From a virus, in IMG/VR virus record IMGVR_UViG_3300012347_000452, positions 32,001 to 96,000 of that record: DNA of 64,000 nt; one strand, given 5' to 3'. Shown piece by piece: positions 2,932 to 56,531 of this stretch. The translations under genes were made by a program, and so were the position numbers. Positions within the stretch are counted from its first letter, which is position 1, and the number at the start of each line of letters is the position of its first letter. The notes beneath the pieces were generated by a model. The model saw nothing but the letters and a program-made list of their open reading frames with translations, was not told the DNA's origin and did not search any database.

Positions 2932-3113
2932 CCGACCAACCGATCCTGGGCTACGACAAAGCGGGCCAACCCATCTACGAGACCAAGCGGGGCTTCATCT
3001 ACACGGCCGCGTGCATCCTGTGCTCTGAGTGCAAGACCGTGATCCGGGGAATGGGCGGCCCGAAGCACGGAAGCACCTGCGTGCCCTGCCACGACGCGAG
3101 GAAGCACTCATGA
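2928..3113 (+). CDS. Small Cys-rich (CxxC...CxxC) protein
   Basis: ATGA-coupled; two CxxC pairs. Confidence 0.55.
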   Translation: MTDQPILGYDKAGQPIYETKRGFIYTAACILCSECKTVIRGMGGPKHGSTCVPCHDARKHS

Positions 3114-3496
3114 GAGTTCTGGTGTGTGGTGGACGCGACTTCACCGACTCGGCTTTCGTGGACTGGGTGCTCGACACACTTCACAAGCGAAAGCCCATCA
3201 CGATCGTCATCCACGGGTGTGCACAGGGCGCTGACACGCTCGGGGAGAAATGGGCCGCCAGGCAGGACGGTGTCACCTCTTACGGGGTGCCTGCGGACTG
3301 GAAGAAGCATGGTCAACGTGCGGGGTTTGTGCGCAATCGACTCATGCTCGAACATGGCAAGCCAGAACTGATCGTTGCGTTCGAGGGAGGTGCCGGCACA
3401 CGGGACATGACGACTGCGGCGACAGCCGCCGGAGTCAAAGTCCTGTTCGCCGAGAAGCTCCGCTCTCACTTCGACGCAAGGCCGCCGTGGGAGTGA
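3110..3496 (+). CDS. SLOG/YspA-like (DUF2493) protein
   Basis: MRVLVCGGRDF, IHGCAQGAD, AGFVRN, AFEGGAGT motifs. Confidence 0.85.
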   Translation: MRVLVCGGRDFTDSAFVDWVLDTLHKRKPITIVIHGCAQGADTLGEKWAARQDGVTSYGVPADWKKHGQRAGFVRNRLMLEHGKPELIVAFEGGAGTRDMTTAATAAGVKVLFAEKLRSHFDARPPWE

Positions 3497-3831
3497 TGTT
3501 CACCTATAAGGATAGAGGTATCGGGTATCGGGAAATGGGGGCCGGGGTGTGGGGTCTGGAGCCGATGTATAAGGATTGGTCCCTGGGGTCTGGGGCCTGT
3601 GTAAGGATCGGTCTGGGGAGGTGGAAGACGAGGAAGGGGTCGCTCACGCACCGATAGCTTTTTTCTAAGACTATCGGTTTCTCATAGGTTTTTACAATGT
3701 ATGCGCGATGACCATCACACCGAAAACACCTACCACAAAAAGACACCAATTGAAAGCATTATCTGACATAATTTTCACCTCTTTTTTGACAACCGACTGA
3801 CACTGTAAGGTGTCAGTCAGTCACTCATGAA

Positions 3832-4512
3832 TTACTTATAAAAAGCAATAATTGCTTCAGCTTTGTCGTTTTGCTTGAATGATATCGCATCATTCTTTTT
3901 AGCTTTAATGACATTACAAATGTCTAAAAACCTAAGCATTTGACGCGATGACGACAATTGAGTCGTCGCGGTGTTTTCACTGACATTCAAGAGTGCTCGA
4001 ACATTCTGAACCTGTTCAGTCTCAGAGTAAACGACCGTTTTTGTAAGTGACATCAGACCTGACTTATTTGTCAGTGTTTCATTCTTTGTAAGATTGAAAA
4101 GAATGCTATTTGTATAAGGGTCTAACTCGCTTTTTTGCTTTGTTGCAAGTGCATAAATGCAATCGCGTATTTTGGTTATCACTTTCAACGCTACATAATT
4201 TTCTGAACCTTTAGTACCTGTTTTTATTGCATTTGCAAGAGTTACAAGCGATTCAGGTGAAGTAAAACCGTTTTTAATAACATGTTCGATTTGCACCGCA
4301 AAACGAGCACTTTTTATCTCATTCAAGTCTGAGATTATCGTTTTGCACTTTGCGTTTTCAGGTTGTGCTTTTCTGAACTCGCATGCATCAATGAATGCTT
4401 GCTGAATTGCTTTGTAGTCAACCGCTTGAACCGCGTCAACCGCTTGCACTACTAGTGGTGTCTTGGTGGTCTTGGTGGTCTTGGTGGTCTTGGTGGTGGT
4501 CTTGGTAGACAT
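3832..4512 (-). CDS. Hypothetical AT-rich protein, distant paralog of 16295-17134
   Basis: GAGG RBS before ATG at 4512; TTK repeats at N-terminus; own leader hairpin and TATAAT. Confidence 0.75.
   Translation of the reverse strand: MSTKTTTKTTKTTKTTKTPLVVQAVDAVQAVDYKAIQQAFIDACEFRKAQPENAKCKTIISDLNEIKSARFAVQIEHVIKNGFTSPESLVTLANAIKTGTKGSENYVALKVITKIRDCIYALATKQKSELDPYTNSILFNLTKNETLTNKSGLMSLTKTVVYSETEQVQNVRALLNVSENTATTQLSSSRQMLRFLDICNVIKAKKNDAISFKQNDKAEAIIAFYK
4418..4506. repeat. Two 9-bp coding tandem repeats
   Basis: GTCTTGGTG about x5 (TTK repeats) and a TCAACCGCT-type unit x3 (QAV/DAV repeats). Confidence 0.8.
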
Positions 4513-4900
4513 AGAAACCTCATAAGTTGAATTGTGCAAAATCGCACTTTATGCGCACGAAAACCATGCGCATAAAATGAGACTTTAGATTTTTAAAGAA
4601 CTTCAGTGATGCACCGCGATGAGTGCATGAGTCAAATTATACATGCTTTTTTTGTGCAAACGGTGACTTTTTTCACCTTGCACAAAAAAAATGTGAAAAG
4701 ACCTGATTTTCAGCAAATCGATTTAAACGCGTTTTAAGGTGCTTTTTAGCGGTTTTTGTGCGAGTTGATACAGATGCACCAGACACCTCGAAAAAATCGA
4801 TTGTAGAGCGTTCTGGTGGGTTTGAGTACTTTTGTGCAACGACTCAATTTTCACAAAATAGTTGGTACGGTTTTTGAATGCACGCAAAGTGCATTTTGTG

Positions 4901-5055
4901 ACTGAACAGTATTTTTCCTACTGAACGGTCTGGTTTTCGACTGAACCGACCAGTCGGCAAATAGGCGGTCTGGTTTGCTACTGAACGGTCTGGTTTCTGA
5001 CTGAACTGTTCAGTAGGCGACTGAACGGTCTATTCGGCGACTGCACCGACCAGTA
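4901..5055. repeat. 20-bp-period array of degenerate ACTGAACnGTTCAGT palindromes (iteron-like)
   Basis: ACTGAAC at 4901, 4920, 4940, 4980, 5000, 5020 and ACTGCAC at 5040. Confidence 0.75.
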
Positions 5056-5149
5056 GGCGACCAGGCGGTCGTTCGGCAACTAGGCGGTCGGCAGGCGACC
5101 GAGCGGTCTGCGCACGACCTGCGCTCGTCCTAACCTGCGCGTACTTCGT

Positions 5150-5400
5150 CCTAGCCGTACCCCTACTTCGACCCAGCCGTACTCCTAAACTCGTCCTTAC
5201 TTCGGTCCACCCGTACTCCGAGGCATCCCTAGGCAAGCCCTTGGATCGTTCCTTGGACGCATCCTTGGATGACGCCCTAGGCAAGCCCTTGGATCGCCTC
5301 TTGGATCGTTCCTAGGCTTCGTGTGCCCCTACGCACACTTCGTTTCGCCCATACATCGCCTAACTTCACCCTACCCGTACTCCGAGGCATTCCTAGGGCG
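5150..5400. repeat. CCTWGG / CCGTACTCC spacer array 1
   Basis: CCTWGG at 5228, 5239, 5251, 5263, 5276, 5287, 5311, 5392. Confidence 0.8.
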
Positions 5401-5412
5401 AGAACGATGCTG

Positions 5413-5437
5413 AAAAACCGAGCTTGGGTGCTCGGTT
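5413..5437 (-). terminator. Terminator, AACCGAGC family copy 1
   Basis: AACCGAGC-6 nt-GCTCGGTT plus T run on minus strand, just after the 5444 stop. Confidence 0.8.
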
Positions 5438-5443
5438 CGGTGC

Positions 5444-5761
5444 TTACATGTCCAAGTCAGTCGCGCTCATGTTGGACATCTCAGCAAGCGCTTCACGGTA
5501 GGAGTCGTGTTTGCTGAATGCGATCAAGTCCCCTACCTTGTCGTCAACCGAGTTGGTGATTCCAATGAACCAGAACTCTGTGTTTCCATTTGTGATCTCA
5601 ACGATCGCGTAGTCGTTTCCATCGTTCGCGGTGAATAGGACTCGAACCTGCTCATCTTGAGTTTTCCAAAAGCTCATTAGCTGTCGAAAGATGGAAAGGT
5701 TGTGACCGTAGGGGTTGGTATGAAATGCGTCGCGAAGGTCGCTGAAAGTTTGGAAGCGCAT
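5444..5761 (-). CDS. Hypothetical protein (cassette 2)
   Basis: ORF between its own TATAAT/leader hairpin and terminator. Confidence 0.7.
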   Translation of the reverse strand: MRFQTFSDLRDAFHTNPYGHNLSIFRQLMSFWKTQDEQVRVLFTANDGNDYAIVEITNGNTEFWFIGITNSVDDKVGDLIAFSKHDSYREALAEMSNMSATDLDM

Positions 5762-5769
5762 AGGAGCTT

Positions 5770-5817
5770 TCGGTGAAGTACTACAAAATCGTAGAACCTT
5801 GATTATAACTTCACCGA
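5770..5817 (-). promoter_or_regulatory. TATAAT promoter with CTAC-GATTTT-GTAG leader hairpin inside a 10-bp inverted repeat
   Basis: TATAAT 5802-5807; hairpin 5781-5794; TCGGTGAAGT/ACTTCACCGA arms. Confidence 0.7.
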
Positions 5818-5871
5818 TGTTGAAAAATGTAGGGTGAATTCAAACGCCCGAACGTCCAACGCCTACCGTGG

Positions 5872-5927
5872 CCTAGGAATGCCTAGGCCGAGATTCCTAG
5901 GCCGGTGTCCTTGGCCTGGTTCCTAGG
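5872..5927. repeat. CCTWGG spacer array 2
   Basis: CCTWGG at 5872, 5882, 5896, 5909, 5922. Confidence 0.8.
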
Positions 5928-5944
5928 CCGAGGTTTGTAGTTTG

Positions 5945-5968
5945 AAAACCGAGCATGGACGCTCGGTT
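5945..5968 (-). terminator. Terminator, AACCGAGC family copy 2
   Basis: AACCGAGC-6 nt-GCTCGGTT plus T run. Confidence 0.8.
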
Positions 5969-5978
5969 CTCGGACCGC

Positions 5979-6266
5979 TTATTCTGATCGGACCGCGACG
6001 TTCAGCATCGCTTCAAGTCCGACCTCGTCGAACTTCTTCAACCAGGACGAATACGCTCTGGTAGCAGGACCGTTCATCTCGTTCGGACGCTCACCGCTGA
6101 TCTTTGATCGGACGCTAGAGAGCATCACACCGAGCGGTTTACTCGGACGCTTGTCACAATCGCGTTGGTAAGTAAATCGGACGAACGGTTCATATTTGCA
6201 AACCGCGCTAGGGTTTTCACTTTGACCAACAGCGATGATGGTGATCGGAGATTCTTTCTTGCTCAT
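5979..6266 (-). CDS. Hypothetical protein (cassette 3)
   Basis: ORF coupled to 6263-6472. Confidence 0.65.
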   Translation of the reverse strand: MSKKESPITIIAVGQSENPSAVCKYEPFVRFTYQRDCDKRPSKPLGVMLSSVRSKISGERPNEMNGPATRAYSSWLKKFDEVGLEAMLNVAVRSE

Positions 6267-6472
6267 GCTGCGCTTTCAGGACGTGTCATGGTGAAGCTCT
6301 GACCAACGAGGTCGTAGGGCAAATCTTCACACTCGTCACACAGGTCGGACGCGACATAAGGTAAGACGGACGCTGGTAGCAACGACTCGAAGGTCGGACC
6401 ACCATCTTGCGTGAACACGCAGGCGAAGGTGTCGAAGTGAGAATCGTAGGACTTGATGAGAATATTTAGCAT
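6263..6472 (-). CDS. Hypothetical protein (cassette 3)
   Basis: ORF directly downstream of TATAAT and leader hairpin. Confidence 0.65.
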   Translation of the reverse strand: MLNILIKSYDSHFDTFACVFTQDGGPTFESLLPASVLPYVASDLCDECEDLPYDLVGQSFTMTRPESAA

Positions 6473-6489
6473 CGGACGCTTTCAAAGAA

Positions 6490-6519
6490 TCACTGCAAAA
6501 TCACAGTGAACCGATTATA
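6490..6519 (-). promoter_or_regulatory. TATAAT promoter with CACTGT-GATTTT-GCAGTG leader hairpin
   Basis: TATAAT 6514-6519; hairpin 6490-6509. Confidence 0.7.
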
Positions 6520-6571
6520 ACATCGCGTTATGTGGAAAATAACGGACATTTTCAACCGCCCTATCACCGAC

Positions 6572-6735
6572 CCTAGGCTTTCCCCTTGGATTTCTCCTTG
6601 GACTACGCCTAGGCATCCCTTGGACCGTTCCTAGGCTCGTTCCTAGACTCATGCCTGCTTCTCCGTGGCCGTACTCCTAGGCCCATCCCTGCTTCTTCCT
6701 ACCCGTACTCCTAGGCTTCTCCGTGGCCGTACCCG
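6572..6735. repeat. CCTWGG / CCGTACTCC spacer array 3
   Basis: CCTWGG at 6572, 6584, 6596, 6608, 6618, 6630, 6676, 6710. Confidence 0.8.
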
Positions 6736-6743
6736 AACATGAG

Positions 6744-6765
6744 AAAACCGAGCCTAAACTCGGTT
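6744..6765 (-). terminator. Terminator, AACCGAG family copy 3
   Basis: AACCGAG-6 nt-CTCGGTT plus T run. Confidence 0.75.
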
Positions 6766-6777
6766 CATTGGAAGCGA

Positions 6778-7008
6778 TTAGGCTTCTGCGTAATCTTCTT
6801 CGGACGCATTGAGCGCCCACAGAGCAGCGTCAAGCCCTGGTTTCGCATACCGAACGAGTCCAACCTGGCCCTCAAACGCGACCAGGTATTTCCAACCTCC
6901 GTCGTTCAGAGGAACCGCACACAGGGTCTCTCCCGTGTTGAGGTCCACAGTTGTGCCCATCTGAGCTTGCGTGAGTTGGGCGGGAGTGAGGGCGATGATT
7001 TTGTTCAT
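6778..7008 (-). CDS. Hypothetical protein (cassette 4)
   Basis: AGGAAA RBS; ends next to the terminator. Confidence 0.65.
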   Translation of the reverse strand: MNKIIALTPAQLTQAQMGTTVDLNTGETLCAVPLNDGGWKYLVAFEGQVGLVRYAKPGLDAALWALNASEEDYAEA

Positions 7009-7028
7009 GGATGTTTCCTGGTGATTTG

Positions 7029-7265
7029 TTAGGCGTTCAAGGTGGGCACGTACATGTCACTCACGGTGATTCCCCATGAGACGAAGTGACCGTGACAGAG
7101 GACTTGCTCCAACCAATTGATTGCCTCCTCATCTGTGAAAAGATGGAAGACGTTGAAGATGCGCTCGGGCGCTTCCGCTTTTACCGCGTAGGGTAGTGAC
7201 TCATGGAACATGGACTTGAGAACATTGCGGGCTTTGTCCGCATCGCAGGTGGAAGAGAAGGACAT
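7029..7265 (-). CDS. Hypothetical protein (cassette 4)
   Basis: AAGGAG RBS before ATG at 7265. Confidence 0.7.
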   Translation of the reverse strand: MSFSSTCDADKARNVLKSMFHESLPYAVKAEAPERIFNVFHLFTDEEAINWLEQVLCHGHFVSWGITVSDMYVPTLNA

Positions 7266-7291
7266 GGTGGTCTCCTTATATAAGAAGGGTG

Positions 7292-7336
7292 CAGTGCAAA
7301 ATCGCACTGACTCAAATATAACCAATGAACTCAGGA
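7292..7336 (-). promoter_or_regulatory. Promoter TCCTGAGTTC-N6-TATATT with CAGTGC-GATTTT-GCACTG leader hairpin
   Basis: Motifs read directly; same register as 14371-14433 and 50439-50480. Confidence 0.7.
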
Positions 7337-7340
7337 CAAA

Positions 7341-7770
7341 CTTATAGGAACGAGGGAACCTTATAGGGAATCTTATAGGGGGAAGGACGACGCTCTCCTA
7401 GGCATCCCACGGACGAATCCATGCTTTTCCCCTAGGGAGATACTTTCCTAGGCCGGTGCCTTGGAACGAGCCTAGGGAATGACGCCTAGGGATGCCGAGG
7501 ACGACGTGCCCACACTTCTTCCTACCCGTACTCCAAATCAGGCCATACAGGCGTCGCCCCGTACTCCGAGGCTCGTTCTCCCTAGGGAAGAAGCAGGATG
7601 GCTCGGGCGGCGAGATTTTTTCCTGTAAGGTTTTGGGAAAGTGAGGATGAAATGATGAGGGGAATACTTCGCCCACACATTGGTTCCACATTGGTTCCAC
7701 ATTGACCCTTTCTCCGTAGCCTGACTCTCTTCCCTACTCCTCTCATCCATAGGCTTCTCCCTAGGCTCAT
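7341..7770. repeat. Non-coding repeat block: CTTATAGG x3, CCTWGG array 4, CACATTGGTTC tandem repeat
   Basis: CTTATAGG 7341/7360/7372; CCTWGG 7397-7765; 11-bp tandem 7676-7707. Confidence 0.7.
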
Positions 7771-8229
7771 CCTTCTCCGTATGGTTGTTCGTCTCCGTGG
7801 CCTGGTCCTTCTTGTTCGTGTTGGTGACGTTGATCTTCCTATTCGTCGTTACTGTCCTCTTCCCGTACTCCGTGATCTTGGTTGGGATTGTTCGGGCTTT
7901 TTCTCTCCGACGTATATCTGTATGTAGTAGGAGTAGAGACTCCTATTGTTCTTTGTTCGGGGAATCGTTCGGGCTTTCTTCTCTCAGGCTGTTGTCGGGG
8001 TCGAGCTCTTTAAACGCGATTTGAGCGCTTTCCGGTCGTTGGTGGTGTCAGCGGTCATCTTGAGTGTCTGGCACGCTTCTATGGTCGTTCTGATGCGCTG
8101 GCCAAGGTTCTTTTTCGGTGGTTGGTTCTGAGGTTGCTTATAGGTAGGGAACCTTATAGATAGGCTATTCTTTGGTTAGTAGTCGGGACTTAGTGCCTTC
8201 CTGTTAGCGTTAGCGGAAAAGTCCTTTAA

Positions 8230-8242
8230 AATCAACAACTTA
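8230..8242 (+). promoter_or_regulatory. IHF-binding consensus site
   Basis: AATCAACAACTTA matches WATCAANNNNTTR; flanked by CCTTATAG repeats. Confidence 0.55.
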
Positions 8243-8268
8243 CGTTCCTAGGCCTGAACCTTATAGGG

Positions 8269-8293
8269 AAAAGCCTCTGCAATGAGAGGCTTT
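8269..8293 (-). terminator. Terminator (possibly bidirectional)
   Basis: AAAGCCTCT-6 nt-AGAGGCTTT downstream of the 8314 stop. Confidence 0.7.
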
Positions 8294-8313
8294 CAAGGGT
8301 TTTGGCCTGATTC

Positions 8314-8769
8314 TTATACTTTGGCCTGAGCCATTTTGAGCATCATCGTGGCCGTGTCGATCACGGCACTGACGGCCTTTTCAGCTTTGTCTGCCTGTTG
8401 CTGCGCCAAGAGAGAATAGGCGCCCTCGAGTGCCTTATCGTGAACCCGCTGGATGGTGACGAGTTCGGCGATCGCCATGCCGGTGACTGCCTCGATGTTG
8501 TTCTTTCCGAAGATGCGGGCCAGGGCATCGACGCTCTCCTCGTTATGACTCTCCCAGGGGTCAGCCGAGCAATTGATCTCCTTCAGTTGCGCCTCCGAGA
8601 ACAGACTGCCTACCGCGCAGTTGTTGCCTGACTTGTACTGATAGGCGCAATCGAGCTTGTCGCCCTTGTTGACGTTCGGTCCGATCTTGCCCTGCTTGGC
8701 CTGGTCGATGATGTGTTGGAGCGATTCGATCTTGGATCGGCATGAGACTCCATTGATGATGTGTGGCAT
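8314..8769 (-). CDS. Hypothetical phage protein
   Basis: AAGGAGAA RBS; CAY...CAVG.L motif common in phage small proteins. Confidence 0.75.
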   Translation of the reverse strand: MPHIINGVSCRSKIESLQHIIDQAKQGKIGPNVNKGDKLDCAYQYKSGNNCAVGSLFSEAQLKEINCSADPWESHNEESVDALARIFGKNNIEAVTGMAIAELVTIQRVHDKALEGAYSLLAQQQADKAEKAVSAVIDTATMMLKMAQAKV

Positions 8770-16294: not shown

Positions 16295-17134
16295 TCACTC
16301 GATGCCCATCTTCAGCTTCATCACATCGACGATGGCGCTGTCGGGGTTGATGACCATGCGTCCACGTTCGCGCTGGGTGATACCGAGAATCGGGAACAGC
16401 ATGAACATCTGGTTCGCCTGACTTGCCGCAGTGCCTGGCGAGTACGGCTTGGACAGCAGGTTGGTCTGCAAGTTGCCTTTGTTGCCCGATGTCAGCTCAC
16501 CCTCCTTGAGCAGCACTTGGAACGAGCGGAGCAGAACCTCATTCAGGGCTGACGTATCCTTGCCCGACGCGATCCAGGTCAGAAGCATGATCGCCTTGTC
16601 CTTGACCTTGTCGGCGATGGCATTGCGGTCGTTCATGTCCGCGATGAACAGGTCGGCACGCTCGTTGGCGGCGTCGATCGTGTCCGTCTTCATGAAACCC
16701 AGCCAAGTCTTGTCACCGCCCAGCAGAGCCATCAGACGCTCGCCAGGCTTGTGCGTGGTGGAGGTGATGCGAGGCGTCTTCGGCTCTTTCGGCTCACCGT
16801 CAGCTTTGGGCTGCTTCGCTTTCTTGGCCTTGATGGTCTTCTCGTCAGGCAGCGCGTCGGTGGCGGGCTTGTCAGCTTCGGCAGTCTCCTCGACCGCGTC
16901 GTCCTGTTCAGCGTAGACCGCCTGAACGGCCTCAGCCTTGTGAATGTCGGCGACTGCGGCTTCGAGCGCGTCTTCGGCGACAGCTTCGTCGTCGGCGGGC
17001 TCGATCACCTCATCCAGATCACCGAGCATCGAGGACAGGAGGGCGTCATCGTTGGTGCTGACTTCGGCGTCTTGAACACCGAGCATCTGGAAGAACACGT
17101 CGTCGATGGCGGGGGTGGCGTTATGCTTGCTCAT
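16295..17134 (-). CDS. Conserved phage protein (acidic N-terminus, possible winged-helix C-terminus)
   Basis: GGAG RBS, own promoter TTGTGA-17-TACAGT, YSPGTAASQANQ motif. Confidence 0.8.
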   Translation of the reverse strand: MSKHNATPAIDDVFFQMLGVQDAEVSTNDDALLSSMLGDLDEVIEPADDEAVAEDALEAAVADIHKAEAVQAVYAEQDDAVEETAEADKPATDALPDEKTIKAKKAKQPKADGEPKEPKTPRITSTTHKPGERLMALLGGDKTWLGFMKTDTIDAANERADLFIADMNDRNAIADKVKDKAIMLLTWIASGKDTSALNEVLLRSFQVLLKEGELTSGNKGNLQTNLLSKPYSPGTAASQANQMFMLFPILGITQRERGRMVINPDSAIVDVMKLKMGIE

Positions 17135-17512
17135 GGAAAAATCTCCGTTGAAAGTTGAAAAAAACAAGTTGAAGGACTGGCATCGAATACTTCGACAATT
17201 GAACTGTATCGCTCGAATCTAGGAGTCACAAGCATCTTGCTTGGGGACTTTTCAAACTGCCTTCGAGGTACATTTCTTATGCGCCGCTTCGATGGTTTGA
17301 ATTATGACCAGCGCGGCTAGGAGAAACAACCACATCTCAGGACACTTCGTAGGGAACCTGCCGTGGTCAGGAACTGAATAGATAAGGCGCGTGCGCGTGC
17401 GCGAATAACCTGCGAACTCAGGAGCTTCAAGTGGTGGCTTTGGGCACTTGATTGGCACGGTGGCAGGGTGGCAGGGTTCGTTGGAAGACTTCCTAGGATG
17501 TCGAGGCCCAGG

Positions 17513-23616: not shown

Positions 23617-23759
23617 GTGATGCCTTTCAACTTCTTGTCTTTCTCGGCCAGCTCCTTCATGTGCTGGTCGAGGCCTTTCCAGTCTTTCGTGGTCCACAGG
23701 TGGTGAGCCTGTGACCCAGGCATCAGGTAGATGCCCTTGTAGAGAACCGCGCCTCTCAC
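23613..23759 (-). CDS. Small hypothetical protein
   Basis: GTGA/ATGA coupling on both sides. Confidence 0.5.
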   Translation of the reverse strand: MRGAVLYKGIYLMPGSQAHHLWTTKDWKGLDQHMKELAEKDKKLKGIT

Positions 23760-24319
23760 AGCGCGACCACCGTTCCTGCGCCGGTCTTGACCTTCTTGGC
23801 GGGCTTCTCGGCCTTCGCCGGTGCGGCTTTGTCTTTGGGCCAACCGAGCGTGGCCAGGTCGGCGACGAGGTTCGCAATCGAAGGCAGGTAGATCGACTTC
23901 TCCTGCTGCTTGGGCAGGTACTGCTCGAACTCGGGCAGACGCTCCAATGCGACCTTCAAGGTTGAGCAAGGCTCGATGGCACCACGCAGCTTGGCGCGAG
24001 CCGATTCCAGACGTGCTTCCTGCTCTTTGTGGAGCTGGGTGAGCTCGTCCACCTTTGTCTGCACTTCCTCGGTGGGTGTGTAGGAGCAGCCGCGAGGCTC
24101 GTAGACTCGAATCGAGCCGAACTGGCTGCGCCACCAACTGCTCGTCTCCAGGCAGTGACAGAGCGCCTTGTCACGGGCGATGGCTTGCACTTTCGCCGGC
24201 AGTTGCGCGATGGAATCGTCGTGAATCAGGGCGCGGACCTGCTCCTGATAGTCGATCTTGGGGATGTCTTGAACGACGGCCAAGACGAAAGCGTCCTTGT
24301 CGGATTTGGTGAGTCTCAT
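23756..24319 (-). CDS. Nmad5-like (nucleotide-modification-associated) protein
   Basis: MRLTK...F...V N-terminus and TLK...E.LPE C-terminal pattern; AAGGAG RBS. Confidence 0.55.
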   Translation of the reverse strand: MRLTKSDKDAFVLAVVQDIPKIDYQEQVRALIHDDSIAQLPAKVQAIARDKALCHCLETSSWWRSQFGSIRVYEPRGCSYTPTEEVQTKVDELTQLHKEQEARLESARAKLRGAIEPCSTLKVALERLPEFEQYLPKQQEKSIYLPSIANLVADLATLGWPKDKAAPAKAEKPAKKVKTGAGTVVAL

Positions 24320-28217: not shown

Positions 28218-28400
28218 TCAGAAGAACAGCCCCAAGATCGAGCCCAGAGGCGCCACGATGACACCCAGGACGCGCAGGATCAGAGCGCCCGTGATGTGGT
28301 CGAAGCTCATGCCGTACAGGACGACGATGTTCATGACCCAGCCGACGATGGCCAGAACCCAGGCGATGATCATGGCGGACAAGATGGTGAGGTTCATCAT
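28218..28400 (-). CDS. Small membrane protein
   Basis: Two TM segments, GW..NI...RV.G...P.G.ILG. Confidence 0.65.
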   Translation of the reverse strand: MMNLTILSAMIIAWVLAIVGWVMNIVVLYGMSFDHITGALILRVLGVIVAPLGSILGLFF

Positions 28401-29230
28401 GCCGCTTCTCCAAACGAGGCTTCGACCAGCTTGCGGTTCTGCATCCAGCCCCGGAAGTTGCCCGACCACAAATCTGCCTCCGCCATCGGGGTTGCTTGAT
28501 GCTCAATCGGTGATGCGTGGAGGGGCACACCCCCGACCAGTCGCTCGTACAGCGCAACGTCCTTTTCGATGCTCGGTGTCTGACCGTCATGTGTGAGATA
28601 GGACACGCGAGCGCACCGGGCAGCAGAGACCTTCAGGAGCAGGTCCATGTTGTCGAAGTGCTCGGCAAGTTCGGCGCGCGTCACGTAGGGCAGATGCCAC
28701 TGACCTTCCATGAGCGTGATCGGACGCGACTCGGCGAAGGCGTGCTTCATCACCAGCGCCAGCGCGTGAATCTCGGGCTGGGCGTCAGGGTGAGCGCGGA
28801 GCTCGAAGAAGTTGTCCCACTCGGTGGCGGTGACGATGACGTGCATGTACTGATAGGGCTCGAGGATGCGGTTGGCCACCTGCTTGTGCAAGCCGATGTC
28901 AGCCATCACCTGGGCGACAGCCGCAGCGTCACGGGCCGCTTGCACCCACAGTTGCTTTGCGCCCTCACGAGCCAGCGGCCGAAGCTCTTCGTTCGCCTGC
29001 ATCCCTGCCTGGTTCTGACCCCAGTGGATCGGCATGGCGGGGTCGTTGCGGACCTGCTCGATCATCTTGGCCACCGGAATGGCGCGCGACGAGCTGGCGT
29101 TGCGGCTGAACACCCGATGCGTCATGAACTCGGCATGGATGAAGCGGGGATAGCAAAGCTGAAGGGTGGTCAGCCGCACCCCGTGATCGGCGATCGAGTC
29201 TTCGATCACCTTGGCGGTGATGGTGGTCAT
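28397..29230 (-). CDS. thyX: FAD-dependent thymidylate synthase (ThyX-like)
   Basis: EFMTHRVFSRNASSSR, AQPEI, ARCARVSY, HASP.EH. Confidence 0.85.
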   Translation of the reverse strand: MTTITAKVIEDSIADHGVRLTTLQLCYPRFIHAEFMTHRVFSRNASSSRAIPVAKMIEQVRNDPAMPIHWGQNQAGMQANEELRPLAREGAKQLWVQAARDAAAVAQVMADIGLHKQVANRILEPYQYMHVIVTATEWDNFFELRAHPDAQPEIHALALVMKHAFAESRPITLMEGQWHLPYVTRAELAEHFDNMDLLLKVSAARCARVSYLTHDGQTPSIEKDVALYERLVGGVPLHASPIEHQATPMAEADLWSGNFRGWMQNRKLVEASFGEAA

Positions 29231-29364
29231 TTTTTGTCCGTCTTTCGTTTGATGAAGTGATAGAGCTGGTGGACCTTCCAGCCCACCCATGCTCCGACGA
29301 GGATTGCGAGGCCCAGGGCGACGATCACGTCACCCCGACCGGCGAAGATGCCGACTGCGTTCAC
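29227..29364 (-). CDS. Small membrane protein (45 aa)
   Basis: GTGA/ATGA-coupled ORF filling the gap; one TM segment. Confidence 0.45.
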   Translation of the reverse strand: MNAVGIFAGRGDVIVALGLAILVGAWVGWKVHQLYHFIKRKTDKK

Positions 29365-29876
29365 GACTTGGCGCCCACCGCTTTAGGCAAGGGGAACGGC
29401 ACTTCGAGCGTGGAGGCGCACGAGCCGTCACTGCCCTTTGCAGGGTGCTTGGACCAGTTGTCGGTCGGGCTCACCATCACGCAGCCTTGAGTCGCGCTCA
29501 CGGTGGAGCACATCACGGTTGCCTTCTGAACCTCCAGGTTCTTGGTCTTGCCCTCTTCACGTTCGGTCCGCATGAAGACAACCTCTGCCCAGCCATCGCC
29601 TTGCGGGCAGGTGGACGAGTGGGTGGTGTCGGCCTTGACGATGGTTTCCCAGCCCGCGATGCGCGGATTCTGGCGCTGGTATTCGGCTGCGGAAGCGCCG
29701 GCATTTGAGCGGCCCTGGGCACGCTGCTCTTCCACGGTCTGAAAGCTGAAGGCGTTGGTCTTGTGAACCTGCCCGCCCTCCTTCATGACCTGTTCGATGC
29801 TGGGCTTGTCACCGCAGGCGGTGAGTGCGAGGGATGCTGCGACAGCGGCAAGGGTGGCGATGGCGATGCGTTTCAT
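29361..29876 (-). CDS. Lipoprotein
   Basis: Signal peptide with lipobox LTAC; AAGGAG RBS. Confidence 0.75.
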   Translation of the reverse strand: MKRIAIATLAAVAASLALTACGDKPSIEQVMKEGGQVHKTNAFSFQTVEEQRAQGRSNAGASAAEYQRQNPRIAGWETIVKADTTHSSTCPQGDGWAEVVFMRTEREEGKTKNLEVQKATVMCSTVSATQGCVMVSPTDNWSKHPAKGSDGSCASTLEVPFPLPKAVGAKS

Positions 29877-48517: not shown

Positions 48518-49186
48518 TCAGGCTCCGATAAATCGTTTTGCGTCCGTGTAGCGCATCGTCTCGATCTCCTTCAGTGCGCCGCTGACCTCGGGTGGCGTGG
48601 CGTTGGAGATCATTCCGATGAAGCTGGCGATGTAGCGCGGCGTGACTTGCACCATGCACCGCGAATTGTGGCCAGTGGAGCGACCGTAGTCGGCGTAGTG
48701 CTGGGCCTTGCGGACCTCGGTCATCACCTCCTCCGGTGGGGCGATCGACCATTCGAGGATCAGCGTGGCCAGTGGCGAGAGCGTCTTGCTCATGTGCTCC
48801 AGCAACTCGGTCACGCGGAAGATCGACTCAGGGTCGGTGCTGGGGTCGGCAAAGCTATCCAGCTTCTGCGCCAGGTCCATCTCCCTGCCCTCCTCGTTGT
48901 CGGAGAGCTCCTCGATGCTGACCATCCCGTGCTTCAGGCGCTCCTCGATCAGGTCTTGCGCCCACCGATTCAAGCGGTTGTAGGCGCACATGAAGAAGTA
49001 GGTGGAGAACTTGAAGCCTCTGGACTCGTCGAACTTCTCGAACGCCTTCAGGAAGACGATCGACATCTCCTGAAACACGTCCTCGTAGTCGATCACGACC
49101 TTCGCTGCCGCCAAACGACTGAAGCCCTTCCGCGATACGACGTGGACGAGCCCCATGTTGGCCTTGTAGTAGTCGGCCGGTGTCAT
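48518..49186 (-). CDS. Sigma70-family sigma factor (region 2 clear, region 4 divergent)
   Basis: N.GLV, EDVFQE, KAFEKFDESRGFKFSTY. Confidence 0.8.
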   Translation of the reverse strand: MTPADYYKANMGLVHVVSRKGFSRLAAAKVVIDYEDVFQEMSIVFLKAFEKFDESRGFKFSTYFFMCAYNRLNRWAQDLIEERLKHGMVSIEELSDNEEGREMDLAQKLDSFADPSTDPESIFRVTELLEHMSKTLSPLATLILEWSIAPPEEVMTEVRKAQHYADYGRSTGHNSRCMVQVTPRYIASFIGMISNATPPEVSGALKEIETMRYTDAKRFIGA

Positions 49187-53730: not shown

Positions 53731-53937
53731 ATGGAACGTCTGCTGAAGCTGCCCGAGGTCGAGACCCTGGTCAGCCTGAAGAAGTCGAAGATTTACGCCC
53801 TCATCCAGGTGGGCGACTTCCCAGAGCCGGTCAAGGTTGGGCGGTCGTCGTCGTGGCTTGAGAGCGAGGTTCAGGGCTGGATCGTCGGGCACGCCAGTCG
53901 GCGAACCACGTCCACGGCTGATGCACTTCCTGCCTGA
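53731..53937 (+). CDS. AlpA-family excisionase/regulator
   Basis: LLKLPEV...SL.KS.IY......FP.PV..GR...W..SEV..WI. Confidence 0.88.
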   Translation: MERLLKLPEVETLVSLKKSKIYALIQVGDFPEPVKVGRSSSWLESEVQGWIVGHASRRTTSTADALPA

Positions 53938-55120
53938 GCGCATCGAGGTAGTCGGCCCAGGCCTGCATCATCTCCACCCGGACATCCCAGTATTCGGCGC
54001 GGTTGTAGGCCCGCTCGGTCTTGTCGTCGATGTCGTGGGCGAGTTGTTTGGAGGTGTATTTGCTATCAAAGCCACCCTCCTCGAGCAAGGTCTTGGCGGT
54101 TGCCCTGAACCCGTGCGTGGTCTGTTGACCTTTGAAACCCAGGCGTTCCAGATTCTTGTTCAGAGTGTTCTCGGAGAGCATCTGTCCCCGTTTGTGACCG
54201 GGGAAGATCAGCGCCTCGTGACCTGTAACACTTTTCCAATTGCACAACAGCTCCACCGCCTGTCTGGACAAAGGCACTAAATACTCCCTGCCTTTCTTCA
54301 TCAGATGGTGCGGAACCTCCCATACGGCCTCATCCGTTCGGATGTGTTCCCATTGAGAGGAACGTAGGTTCTGCGGCCGTACCCACACCAGGCAGGCGAA
54401 CCGAAGCGCCATGATCGAGACGCTCCCCGGTTCCCGATCCATCCTCAGCAGCAGGGCGCGAAGGTCTTTGGGGTTGGTGAGCGCGGCGTGATGGCGCTCG
54501 ATATGGGCCTTGTACTCGCGCCGCTTGACCAGTGCCGCAGGGTTGCTCTTGATGTATCCCTTGTCATCAGCGAACTGGCACGAGCGCACGAGGATGTCGC
54601 GCACTCGGGTGAGCATGTAGTGGGCTCCCCGGTCCTCGACCTTCTGAAGGATCGACCGGACCTCCTCGGTGGAGAGCTCCGTGATGCGCTTGGCCCCGTG
54701 CGTGGCCAGGATGTTGGCCTTGGCGGCGGTGTTGTAGTCGTCGTAGTGCCGCGAACTCCACTCATGCCGGTTGTGTTCGAGCCATTCGGTGATGACCTCG
54801 CCCACCGACTTCGCGTCCCGGTTGGCGTCCCGAGCCTTGCGCCGTAACTCCACCGGGTCCGTACCAAGCTGCACGGCTTCCCTAGCTTGTTCAGCCAGGG
54901 TGCGTGCCGTACTCAACTTGACCTGTGGGTAAGTGCCCATCGAGAAGGTCTTCCGTACCCCGAGCAGGACGTAGTCGAGCTGCCAGGACATGCCGCCGGT
55001 GCGCCGCACGACGAGGTAGAGCCCCGAGCCGTCGCTGATCTTGGTCACGGAGTTCTCGGACTCGCGCGCCTGCTTGATGCGCTTCTCCAGCTCCTTCTGC
55101 GACAGCTCATGCAGTGCCAC
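53831..55120 (-). CDS. P4-type tyrosine integrase
   Basis: DG.GLYL arm-binding domain, VRP, MKK, HGFR, LAH, AYNR. Confidence 0.93.
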   Translation of the reverse strand: MALHELSQKELEKRIKQARESENSVTKISDGSGLYLVVRRTGGMSWQLDYVLLGVRKTFSMGTYPQVKLSTARTLAEQAREAVQLGTDPVELRRKARDANRDAKSVGEVITEWLEHNRHEWSSRHYDDYNTAAKANILATHGAKRITELSTEEVRSILQKVEDRGAHYMLTRVRDILVRSCQFADDKGYIKSNPAALVKRREYKAHIERHHAALTNPKDLRALLLRMDREPGSVSIMALRFACLVWVRPQNLRSSQWEHIRTDEAVWEVPHHLMKKGREYLVPLSRQAVELLCNWKSVTGHEALIFPGHKRGQMLSENTLNKNLERLGFKGQQTTHGFRATAKTLLEEGGFDSKYTSKQLAHDIDDKTERAYNRAEYWDVRVEMMQAWADYLDALRQEVHQPWTWFADWRARRSSPEPRSQATTTTAQP

Positions 55121-55437: not shown

Positions 55438-56082
55438 TCAGTTTGTCGCTAGGCATTCGTCCGCCAAACGGACGATCCGCTCGACGATGCCGTCGATGTT
55501 GCCCTCGTGGAACTCATGCAGCCAGAGGTCGCAGATCGGCCCGACATCCTCGCCCCACCAGCACTCGTCCTTGATCATGACGCCCAGGCGATTGGCGTAG
55601 GTGGTCTCGACCTTCTGGACGGCCTCCTCAGTGACGCCGTTCTGGACCACCTTCTTCAGGTCATCCATGAATCGGGTGATGAAGCGTTCGCCGATCACCT
55701 TGCCAGGATTGTCGATGAAGACCGTGAAGTAGTTCCAGACTCGGGTGTTGCAGAAAGTCTTGATCTGCTTCAGGCCTTCGGGCTCGACGATCACGACGAT
55801 GGGCTTGTTCATCGCGGCGACCCGCTCGACCTCGGTGATGGACACGCCGTAGAGCTGGCCATTGAACTCGACCGCCTCGACAAAGCGACGTTCGGCGGCC
55901 TGGCGCTGGAACTCCGCCTTGCTGACGAAGTAGTAGCTCTTGCCGTCCACTTCCCCGGCGCGTGGCGCGCGGGTGGTGGTGGAGATGACGTTCTCGAAGC
56001 CTGCCTTCTTGAGAGCAGCCTCGAGTGTGGATTTGCCGGCGCAGGTTGGGCCGGTCAGCGTGACGATGAAGGGCGGGTTCAT
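55438..56082 (-). CDS. Guanylate kinase-like protein
   Basis: GPTCAGKST, STTTRAPRAGEVDG..YYF, NG.LYG. Confidence 0.88.
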   Translation of the reverse strand: MNPPFIVTLTGPTCAGKSTLEAALKKAGFENVISTTTRAPRAGEVDGKSYYFVSKAEFQRQAAERRFVEAVEFNGQLYGVSITEVERVAAMNKPIVVIVEPEGLKQIKTFCNTRVWNYFTVFIDNPGKVIGERFITRFMDDLKKVVQNGVTEEAVQKVETTYANRLGVMIKDECWWGEDVGPICDLWLHEFHEGNIDGIVERIVRLADECLATN

Positions 56083-56531
56083 GGTGTTGTCCTTTCTACA
56101 TAGCGGACTCGGGAGGTGTTGACCCGAATGCCGTCGGGGCTGTTCGGGGTGATGGAGTGGTGTGTGCCGAGGTAGGTCGAAAGCTCCCAACCCTCCTCGT
56201 GAAAGCGCCCTTCCGGGTCGTGTTCGAGGTGGGCTCTGATGCCCGCCTTGTCGTGGCTTTGGAGGCCGTACTTGGTCATGTACTCGTCCGTCAGCACGAA
56301 CGTGATGGCTTGGCTGTCGCGCACCTTGCCGACGTTGCTCAGACCCCGAACGGTGAGCATCGCTTCGACCTCCGAGAGGCCCGTCAGCGCTTCTGCGAAC
56401 GAGGCAAGAGGCACCTCGACGGTCAAGAAGTCGATGCGGCTGGTGGCGTCGCGAATCTTGATGCTGATGCAGGCGCCGTTATCGTGACGCCCGCCATTCG
56501 GCCGACTGATGGTCAGGTTGCCCTTAAGCAC
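56079..56531 (-). CDS. Hypothetical protein
   Basis: GGAGG RBS; coupled. Confidence 0.65.
   Translation of the reverse strand: MLKGNLTISRPNGGRHDNGACISIKIRDATSRIDFLTVEVPLASFAEALTGLSEVEAMLTVRGLSNVGKVRDSQAITFVLTDEYMTKYGLQSHDKAGIRAHLEHDPEGRFHEEGWELSTYLGTHHSITPNSPDGIRVNTSRVRYVERTTP

Follow-up and report, generated by a model that had tools for sequence, protein, structure and literature searches.

What could keep a word of three bases out of one place in a genome that uses it everywhere else? An unknown DNA-reading activity leaves few traces in a sequence, among them the local avoidance of a DNA word, and the question is raised here by a stretch of 1,283 nt (positions 3635 to 4917) in a 64,000-nucleotide window of viral DNA (positions 32,001 to 96,000 of IMG/VR record IMGVR_UViG_3300012347_000452; coordinates below refer to this window unless stated otherwise). 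GGA, GGC, TCC, and GCC are all absent from this zone, as a first-pass annotation made from the letters of the window had noted. The trace is unusually clean, since in 15 kb of diverged sequence from the zone and its relatives about 830 occurrences of the avoided word were expected and 7 were found. The source of the window is a single contig of 107,050 bp (60% GC, rated 100% complete). A blastp comparison of all its open reading frames (ORFs) revealed long synteny with Salmonella phage SSU5, covering tail, capsid, terminase, ParB-like, helicase, PolIII alpha, DnaB, primase, ligase, and CobS/CobT-like genes, on which we judge the genome to be of the SSU5-like phage-plasmid type, the nature that the annotation had assumed for it.

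The purged zone and the arrays next to it

Every GGN and NCC between positions 3300 and 6600 was listed. All four words were missing from the interval bounded by the GGA at 3632 and the TCC at 4916, and the 31 GG and 26 CC dinucleotides of the zone were resolved into 27 GGT, 26 ACC, 4 GGG, and no CCC. Two of the four GGG overlap in the GGGG of a conserved boundary element at the 3' end, one lies in upstream noncoding DNA, and one is coding, being forced by an Asp-Pro codon pair (GAC CCT) whose alternative would give TCC. A first-order Markov model predicted 8.9 GGA, 7.9 GGC, 7.5 TCC, and 6.9 GCC in the zone, and 2,000 dinucleotide-preserving shuffles contained a mean of 31.3 of the four words (standard deviation, 3.5; minimum, 17), so that a count of zero is not expected once composition is corrected for. 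Elsewhere in the genome, one of the words occurs about every 12 nt. The longest gap without them genome-wide is the zone itself (1,284 nt), and the second longest measures 89 nt. For words placed at random at one per 12 nt, we roughly estimate a longest gap of about 110 nt; the 89 nt fit this value, and a ruler-like spacing of the words does not apply here.

The ban holds in coding and noncoding DNA alike. No banned word was found in the 681 nt of the 226-amino-acid (aa) gene that the zone contains (3832 to 4512, minus strand), in the 197 nt on its left (3635 to 3831), or in the 405 nt on its right (4513 to 4917), and the two noncoding parts carry 12 and 14 GGT/ACC, respectively. All four Gly codons of the gene are GGT, and GCC, TCC, and Trp codons are absent. 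The palindromes GCGC, CGCG, TCGA, AGCT, GTAC, CATG, and TGCA are retained in the zone; GATC, CCGG, GGCC, and ACGT are missing. The annotation had described the codons and the retained palindromes correctly.

The stepwise relaxation that it had described upstream of the zone is also present in the window. In 400-nt windows starting at 5401 and 6001, GGC plus GCC numbered 0 and 1 against 7.9 and 8.2 expected, with GGA/TCC at normal levels. Pooled over relatives, this second tier is modest, with GGC at 0.75 of expectation versus 1.09 in a control stretch. The genes concerned encode a protein of 105 aa (5444 to 5761, minus strand), which contains no GGC/GCC and allows GGA/TCC, and proteins of 95 and 69 aa (5979 to 6472, minus strand), in which GGC/GCC are almost absent; the small cassette proteins had no family in Pfam, NCBIfam, or PHROGs. 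In and around the 95-aa and 69-aa genes (5950 to 6545), TCGGACGC, with a CGGAC core, occurs about 12 times on the plus strand, every 25 to 35 nt, owing to which the plus strand of 5930 to 6317 has 11 GGA but 1 TCC.

Upstream of the zone, these small cassettes alternate with arrays of CCTAGG and CCTTGG units at a spacing of 11 to 13 bp. Four such phased arrays lie between the cassettes at 5228 to 7490, namely, array 1 (5228 to 5316), composed of B-CC-TW-GG-V units, and arrays 2 (5872 to 5927), 3 (6572 to 6715), and 4 (7397 to 7490), composed of CCTAGG/CCTTGG units. CCTAGG is concentrated here, 21 of the genome's 24 copies being located within 5.2 to 8.3 kb of the window. Among the 29 array units of the window, A never precedes CC and T never follows GG, and the base flanking GG is C in 16 cases, A in 9, G in 5, and T in none. 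These flanks are also rare in the family, in which 332 clustered CCWWGG units have a 5' A in 3.9% and a 3' T in 2.7% of cases, versus a background of approximately 25 to 30%. From these counts, the array unit can be written as B-CCWWGG-V, and its half-site is exactly the word that is missing from the zone. The order of avoidance matches array use as well: GGC is excluded in the second tier too, GGA is excluded in the zone only, four GGG are tolerated, and GGT is unrestricted.

Conservation of the ban and its attachment to one locus

Relatives were collected by a related-locus search of viral, genome, and metagenome contigs and by tblastn on plasmids. Their zones are 0.6 to 1.6 kb long, with a GC content of 31 to 50%, and their zone proteins are 35 to 52% identical to that of the window. 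Zone lengths were 904 nt in L001, 1,085 in L002, 1,010 in L005/L006, 980 in L010, 1,561 in L017, at least 889 in L028, 1,004 in L030, 976 in L033, 949 in L034, 930 in L035, 1,007 in L036, 828 in L052, and 942 in L056. The gene was also found by tblastn on 153 Acinetobacter plasmid records of approximately 90 to 155 kb, among which the zone was checked in ZW85p2 of A. baumannii alone. There, a zone of 1,154 nt surrounds an annotated 266-aa hypothetical gene; its GC content (about 35%) equals that of its surroundings, in which 20 to 30 of the words occur per 500 nt. The depletion is thus conserved at the syntenic position at 35 to 52% protein identity, and since synonymous sites are saturated at such distances, the pattern must be maintained. 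The purge is, then, kept by selection and not inherited.

The exact word became clear when 15 zones (15,282 nt) were pooled and each GGN was treated separately against the expectation from base composition. GGA/TCC numbered 0 against 352 expected, GGC/GCC 0 against 238, and GGG/CCC 7 against 241, whereas GGT/ACC were normal, with 423 against 361. The absence of GGA and GGC had been the criterion for picking the zones, which leaves the result for GGG as the independent one. All other trinucleotides reached at least 0.63 of their Markov expectation, and GA is not avoided. A count on the sense strand of 14 pooled zones gave 1 GGA, 0 GGC, 4 TCC, and 0 GCC. As most relatives lack GGG/CCC too, the family rule is therefore a ban on GGV/BCC: GG occurs solely as GGT and CC solely as ACC. 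The ban on GGA and GGC claimed in the annotation stands, and its formulation as GGM is better replaced by GGV. Each complete genome with the ban has exactly one zone (our own genome; G001, 1,010 nt; G002, 578 plus 264 nt; G003, 1,561 nt; and ZW85p2, 1,154 nt), and none was found in the genomes of SSU5 and BUCTxx99. The arrays are kept upstream of the gene in most relatives, with CCATGG in place of CCTAGG in one clade.

These data bear on the simplest explanation, in which no selection acts on the word and the pattern is a relic of foreign-donor composition, an extreme codon bias, or the outcome of a local mutational process, e.g., a context-specific deaminase. In our genome, the zone is indeed a sharp-edged AT-rich island (39% versus 60% GC), and highly expressed genes typically use ACC for Thr and GGT for Gly. 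However, chance, donor composition, and codon bias are excluded because the Markov model predicts 31 words where none was found, because the noncoding parts comply, and because the ban persists at 35% protein identity in zones of differing GC content, including that of ZW85p2, where there is no GC contrast. As for mutation, BCC-rich arrays persist within a few hundred bases of the zone, and none of the known deaminase contexts takes in all of GCC, TCC, and CCC but leaves out ACC. This explanation is already largely refuted, and we regard it as barely credible.

Selection extends to the amino-acid level. With a dynamic programme, the minimum number of banned words forced under any synonymous coding of a protein was computed. 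The genome's own proteins showed a median of 1.9 forced words per 100 aa for GGM and 3.5 for GGV, versus no forced word in 20 of 23 homologues of the zone protein for GGM and 0 or 1 in most orthologues for GGV. The zone proteins are thus adapted so that banned words are seldom forced, and the purge has lasted long enough to reshape a protein family. Conservation in relatives, presence on both strands and in noncoding DNA, and this reach into the protein support the strong selection against a very short DNA word that the annotation had proposed.

A natural control is provided by L003, L037, and L007, which contain tandem paralogues of the zone gene approximately 2 to 3 kb apart (2991 to 3542 and 6016 to 6564 in L003, 605 to 1156 and 2541 to 3098 in L037, and 5821 to 6378 and 7706 to 8263 in L007). 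In each pair, one copy has a normal composition (GC, 52 to 61%), and the other is AT rich and purged. The purge affects the terminal copy only, with 2, 1, and 18 banned words, respectively, against 56 to 69 in the upstream copies, and Gly residues decrease from 8 to 12 in the upstream copy to 2 in the terminal one. One purged paralogue per pair, together with one zone per genome, indicates that the ban is attached to the locus and not to the protein family or the genome.

Such locus specificity is hard to reconcile with a priming desert, in which a DnaG-type primase would start at 5'-BCC-3' (with a cryptic 3' C and a pppG- primer) and the unit would avoid priming on both strands. Primases read trinucleotides on single strands, which would give a strand-symmetric ban, and their start sites have a central pyrimidine, as in 5'-CCC-3' for the DnaG of Aquifex and GTC for T7. 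A DnaG-like primase is conserved in the group, and the arrays would offer priming sites at high density on either strand. However, SSU5 and BUCTxx99 have a primase homologue and no ban, only one copy is purged among tandem paralogues, and we could name no benefit of a primer-free stretch of 1 kb. We consider this explanation distinctly improbable.

Since both strands are clean, together with the 405 nt of noncoding DNA upstream of the start codon, the data point to duplex DNA rather than mRNA as the molecule that is read. The alternative is an endoribonuclease or RNA-binding factor for GGV acting on a unit transcribed from both ends, by analogy with transcripts that lack ACA or GCU and so escape MazF or MqsR; three-base mRNA interferases and transcripts without their sites do exist. 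The zone coincides with a transcription unit and, in several relatives, is bracketed on both sides by inward-pointing repeats that contain TATAAG. Against this, avoidance is not confined to the transcribed strand, so that a hypothetical antisense transcription across the unit would be needed. TATAAG, with G at its last position, makes a poor -10 element for sigma-70, the upstream copies resemble iterons of 23 bp, and the putative antisense leader contains GGA and GGG. The flanks of the array units would also be left unexplained, and a reader of RNA is accordingly very doubtful.

The same word is banned in elements from Acinetobacter, from a Paraburkholderia metagenome-assembled genome (MAG), and from varied metagenome contigs (flank GC, 40 to 62%), and this uniformity across host orders suggests a reader carried by the element itself. 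It also weighs on the proposal of the annotation that a host defence reads GGM/KCC, or more generally that the unit avoids a host defence or a CRISPR protospacer adjacent motif (PAM)-like word in the DNA that is first to enter or to be needed, on the model of first-step transfer in T5, whose early DNA is locally free of sites. The position of the unit is suitable, approximately 9 to 10 kb from the small-terminase gene and beside genes for Tad2-like anti-Thoeris, SLOG/YspA, and ParB-like proteins, and a sigma-70-like -10 element and a 5' hairpin recall early genes read by the host polymerase. Nevertheless, defence specificities differ between strains and hosts and the 3-bp word does not; no known restriction system has 3-bp recognition, and many 4-bp palindromes are kept. 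PAMs of the GG/CC type would not spare GGT, which is not depleted, and we know of no PAM that reads GGV. Moreover, with the word every 12 nt or so elsewhere, sparing 1.3 kb would not rescue the genome from a nuclease. On account of the varied hosts, the size of the word, the exemption of GGT, and its density elsewhere, a host defence is disfavored, and we rate it as unlikely.

A candidate reader of the word

The 226-aa protein encoded in the zone consists of a disordered N-terminal tail with TKT repeats, a helical domain, and a C-terminal winged helix. No Pfam or NCBIfam match was above the cutoff, and its only matches in PHROGs were two families without an assigned function (phrog_4202 and phrog_9272). 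Look-alikes in the Atlas form clusters of 91, 747, and 513 members from phages and Pseudomonadota, all named hypothetical proteins; tblastn gave no match in GenBank phages, and no longer, fused relatives turned up when they were searched for, although this is weak evidence. An AlphaFold2 model built with 23 homologues reached a predicted local distance difference test (pLDDT) score of 86. Residues 120 to 226 of the model aligned with MarR/ArsR/HxlR-type chains in VIA-align (Z, 8 to 9; root mean square deviation, about 2 Å over 70 to 80 residues), and Foldseek returned nothing below an E value of 0.1 from the PDB. On this model, the protein is predicted to have a winged helix-turn-helix fold in an unnamed sequence family.

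In the predicted recognition helix (SSSRQMLR), R194 is invariant and R190, four residues away, nearly so. The only clade with a changed helix (SQ[IV][RK]Q) is the clade whose arrays consist of CCATGG, not CCTAGG. The homologues of SSU5 and BUCTxx99 have a different predicted recognition helix, no arrays beside the gene, and no ban. A distant paralogue of 290 aa (16295 to 17167, minus strand), homologous to SSU5_087 and assigned to phrog_3932, has an acidic N-terminal region and a normal word composition.

We propose that the zone is an island without sites. GG followed by a base other than T (GGV/BCC) would be read on duplex DNA by a factor that the phage-plasmid itself encodes; the B-CCWWGG-V arrays before the neighboring cassettes would be the designated sites of this factor, and the unit, from promoter to terminator, would have been cleared of single copies so that the factor could not bind, spread over, or act there. 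The likeliest reader would be a regulator that binds the arrays, and an exclusion of T is what we would expect from a steric effect of the thymine methyl group. An element-encoded reader of duplex GGV that is kept off the unit is the reading we prefer, at somewhat less than an even chance. The winged-helix protein of the zone is the first candidate for this reader because of its conserved arginine pair, the changed helix of the CCATGG clade, and the lack of both arrays and ban in SSU5 and BUCTxx99; about half of our expectation for the reading attaches to it, so that we name it tentatively.

Several points weigh against the proposal. We infer the identity of the reader from these correspondences, and selection against each single copy of a 3-bp core is not what one would normally expect from a sequence-specific binder. 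Nor does the ban follow the strength of the arrays: the very clean zones of G003 and ZW85p2 adjoin only two or three array units, and in L004, L014, and L007 the ban is relaxed although the arrays are good. The covariation of helix and array represents a single evolutionary event. The contrast with SSU5 and BUCTxx99 is confounded by phylogeny, and the near-total lack of CCWWGG in SSU5 (NC_018843.1) probably has a cause of its own. SSU5 contains 5 CCWWGG in 103 kb, against about 105 expected, with neither CCTAGG nor CCATGG, a scarcity that looks like StyI-type site avoidance in a Salmonella phage. Finally, a comparison of gene content between five ban-positive and two ban-negative genomes, likewise confounded by phylogeny, revealed no nuclease or methyltransferase specific to the former; what it returned was the zone gene, a ThyX-like gene, a 194-aa unknown, and two ORFs taken as opposite-strand shadows. 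Because the evidence consists of correlations along one tree, we hold our confidence in the reader at the level given.

The same comparison bears on a different reading, in which an undescribed enzyme of the element marks or cuts DNA at GGV by modification, nicking, or cleavage and the unit is free of sites because its genes have to be readable on marked DNA, or to survive, at a time when the rest of the genome is not. Here too, "anything but T" would fit, in our reasoning, a steric exclusion by the thymine methyl group, and three-base enzyme specificities exist, since Nt.CviPII/M.CviPII act at CCD and DpdA-type modification has been reported at GA and GGC. The genome encodes a divergent ThyX-like protein (28397 to 29290), a guanylate kinase (55438 to 56190), and an Nmad5-domain protein (23756 to 24319), all on the minus strand and possible hints of an unusual nucleotide metabolism. 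The ThyX-like gene is present in all five ban-positive genomes, with 49 to 71% protein identity; SSU5 and BUCTxx99 have ThyA, and tblastn detected no such ThyX-like gene in them. However, ThyX and guanylate kinase work on nucleotide pools, with no sequence context. Nmad5 was considered as the modifier and rejected because it is missing from G003 and ZW85p2, the genomes with the cleanest zones, and TopIB, considered because YCCTT recurs in the repeats, has no gene in the genome. Neither N6/N4, C5, and D12 methyltransferases nor TGT/DpdA were detected in this complete genome, and PF01555, PF00145, PF02086, and PF01702 gave no match in its 107 kb, so that the DNA modification suggested in the annotation corresponds to no known enzyme. 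Such an enzyme would also leave unexplained the arrays and the full purge of just one of several cassettes with host-type promoters. We therefore consider it possible but rather doubtful.

Taken together, the observation made in the annotation holds, with GGV as the more exact word; its inference that a short DNA word is under selection is supported, and the mechanism is offered as a proposal. With some reserve, we suggest that a widespread group of phage-plasmids may possess a so far undescribed system for reading or marking duplex DNA at GGV, to which one regulator unit per genome is invisible. If so, this would amount to a new regulatory logic, in which a gene is insulated from the global DNA reader of its own element, or to a new DNA-marking system, in elements that are tractable at the bench (the Acinetobacter plasmids).

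Layout and neighborhood of the unit

Read along the minus strand, the zone contains a -10-like element of the sigma-70 type, a 5' hairpin, a GAGGT ribosome site, the 226-aa gene, a 25-aa peptide ORF, and a second hairpin. A simple scan for promoters and terminators performed at chance level, and Rfam detected no RNA family between 2800 and 9500. The leader hairpin is GTGC-GATTTT-GCAC (4534 to 4547, minus strand), and relatives have a hairpin at the same position, with a loop of GATTTT or AAACGAAA. The TKT tail is encoded by a 9-nt tandem repeat (GGTCTTGGT on the plus strand; coding on the minus strand, 4460 to 4512), the source of many GGT. Downstream of the gene, the predicted ORF for a hydrophobic peptide of 25 aa (MSDNAFNWCLFVVGVFGVMVIAHTL; 3692 to 3769, minus strand) has its own GAGGT ribosome site. 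L056 also has an ORF for a hydrophobic peptide of 25 to 26 aa within the purged unit, upstream of its zone gene, and the zone of L017 includes another complete cassette, in which promoter and leader are duplicated.

The 3' edge is well conserved. A hairpin with the stem ACCGATAG-loop-CTATCGGT (3650 to 3678) is followed directly, in most relatives as well, by a boundary element with GACCCCTTCCTCGT on the sense strand (3619 to 3645). Across relatives, the stem shows covariation and GTCTTAGGAAAT is retained as the loop; in most of them the first GGA sits in this loop, which marks the end of the zone. The order at this edge in relatives is the hairpin, then GACCCCTTCCTCGTT, and then two or three CCTTATACA repeats, equivalent in place to a G-rich stretch of our genome with two copies of TATAAGGAT and one of TGTAAGGAT (3497 to 3612). 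TATAAGGAT also occurs in the divergent spacer between the ParB and helicase genes (genome position 31690) and before plus-strand genes at 1633, and its TATAAG core is shared by CCCTATAAGGTTC repeats in minus orientation at 7341 to 7380 and 8137 to 8318.

At the opposite edge, direct repeats of about 20 bp with a ACTGAACGGTCTGGT core (4914 to 5100) start exactly where the zone ends, and several relatives have 23-bp direct repeats containing TATAAG at the 5' edge. Direct repeats of about two helical turns thus adjoin AT-rich DNA, as in iterons. The zone gene was considered as a plasmid Rep and rejected, at least for ZW85p2: it matched no Rep family in Pfam, NCBIfam, or PHROGs, and in ZW85p2 a separate RepM is annotated at a distance of 70 kb. 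In SSU5, too, the replication gene lies elsewhere. Cumulative GC skew tracks gene orientation and gave no origin signal.

The unit is located in the least understood part of SSU5-like phage-plasmids, beside anti-defense and partition-like genes. To its left lie ParB-like genes, an ABC-type ATPase, a thioredoxin, and, between the terminase genes and the zone, genes for a Tad2-like anti-Thoeris domain protein (PF11195; E value, 9e-26; L062:3091-3588, corresponding to genome positions 29091 to 29588, minus strand) and a YspA/SLOG protein (PF10686; E value, 8e-19; window positions 3029 to 3496, plus strand), which suggests an anti-defense neighborhood. The helicase, at the left of the window, is nearest to those of Stenotrophomonas phage BUCTxx99, Xanthomonas phage JGB6, RHEph10-type Rhizobium phages, and SSU5. 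Further genes encode a class II ribonucleotide reductase and a small sigma-70-family protein. The latter has 222 aa, with a sigma-70 region 2 (48518 to 49186, minus strand), and adjoins a CobS-like ATPase; at the same place, ZW85p2 has an annotated sigma-70 family factor and SSU5 just a 67-aa gene. A tyrosine integrase with an arm-binding domain is encoded at 53831 to 55120 (minus strand) in this genome otherwise syntenic with plasmid-prophages. Given this integrase, and since no RepFIB-like gene was found by blastp against SSU5, the element may integrate instead of replicating as a plasmid.

Comparison with known systems

Literature searches on SSU5 lysogeny control and on CCTAGG repeats returned nothing on this locus, and none of the nearest described situations combines a 3-bp "not T" word with a single purged unit facing arrays of that word. 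Some of the traits do have counterparts there. ETS-domain winged-helix proteins read a GGA core by means of two recognition-helix arginines, and the zone protein, a putative DNA binder, is likewise predicted to be a winged-helix protein with two conserved arginines in that helix; there is no sequence relationship, and the spacing of the arginines differs by one residue from that in ETS domains. Among viral enzymes that act on short motifs, Nt.CviPII/M.CviPII of chloroviruses (CCD) and the 7-deazaguanine-inserting DpdA of phages such as CAjan (GA/GGC) share with the present word a three-base specificity, one degenerate position, and a motif containing GGC. Unlike in those systems, no homologue of these enzyme families is present in the genome and GA is not avoided in the zone.

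Transcripts immune to mRNA interferases, which cut at ACA in the case of MazF and at GCU in that of MqsR, resemble the zone in that a whole gene unit lacks a three-base word and the protein sequence is adapted to this. Here, both strands and the upstream noncoding DNA are purged as well, in accordance with DNA, not mRNA, being read. The arrays, for their part, recall the operator and centromere arrays of very short repeats that small cooperative repressors bind, such as the 7-bp heptads of pSM19035 (omega; present before several promoters), the 4-bp boxes of TP228 (ParG), ParR/parC of R1, and the metboxes of MetJ, since phased short and partly palindromic units stand before several small transcription units on a plasmid-like element. 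To our knowledge, no system of this type has a gene unit purged of the core word, and the present one is known from its arrays, with a candidate binding protein only.

There is also a resemblance in outline to the first-step-transfer (pre-early) DNA of T5, which, like early regions of T7-like phages, is locally free of certain restriction sites. In both cases, a bounded block read by the host polymerase in a siphovirus-type genome of about 100 kb lacks a word that is common elsewhere and has repeats at its edge. The zone differs from the T5 block in that its word is a 3-bp "not T" word, corresponds to no restriction site, and is the same across host orders, and in that one transcription unit only is spared, with the positive image of the word arrayed next door.

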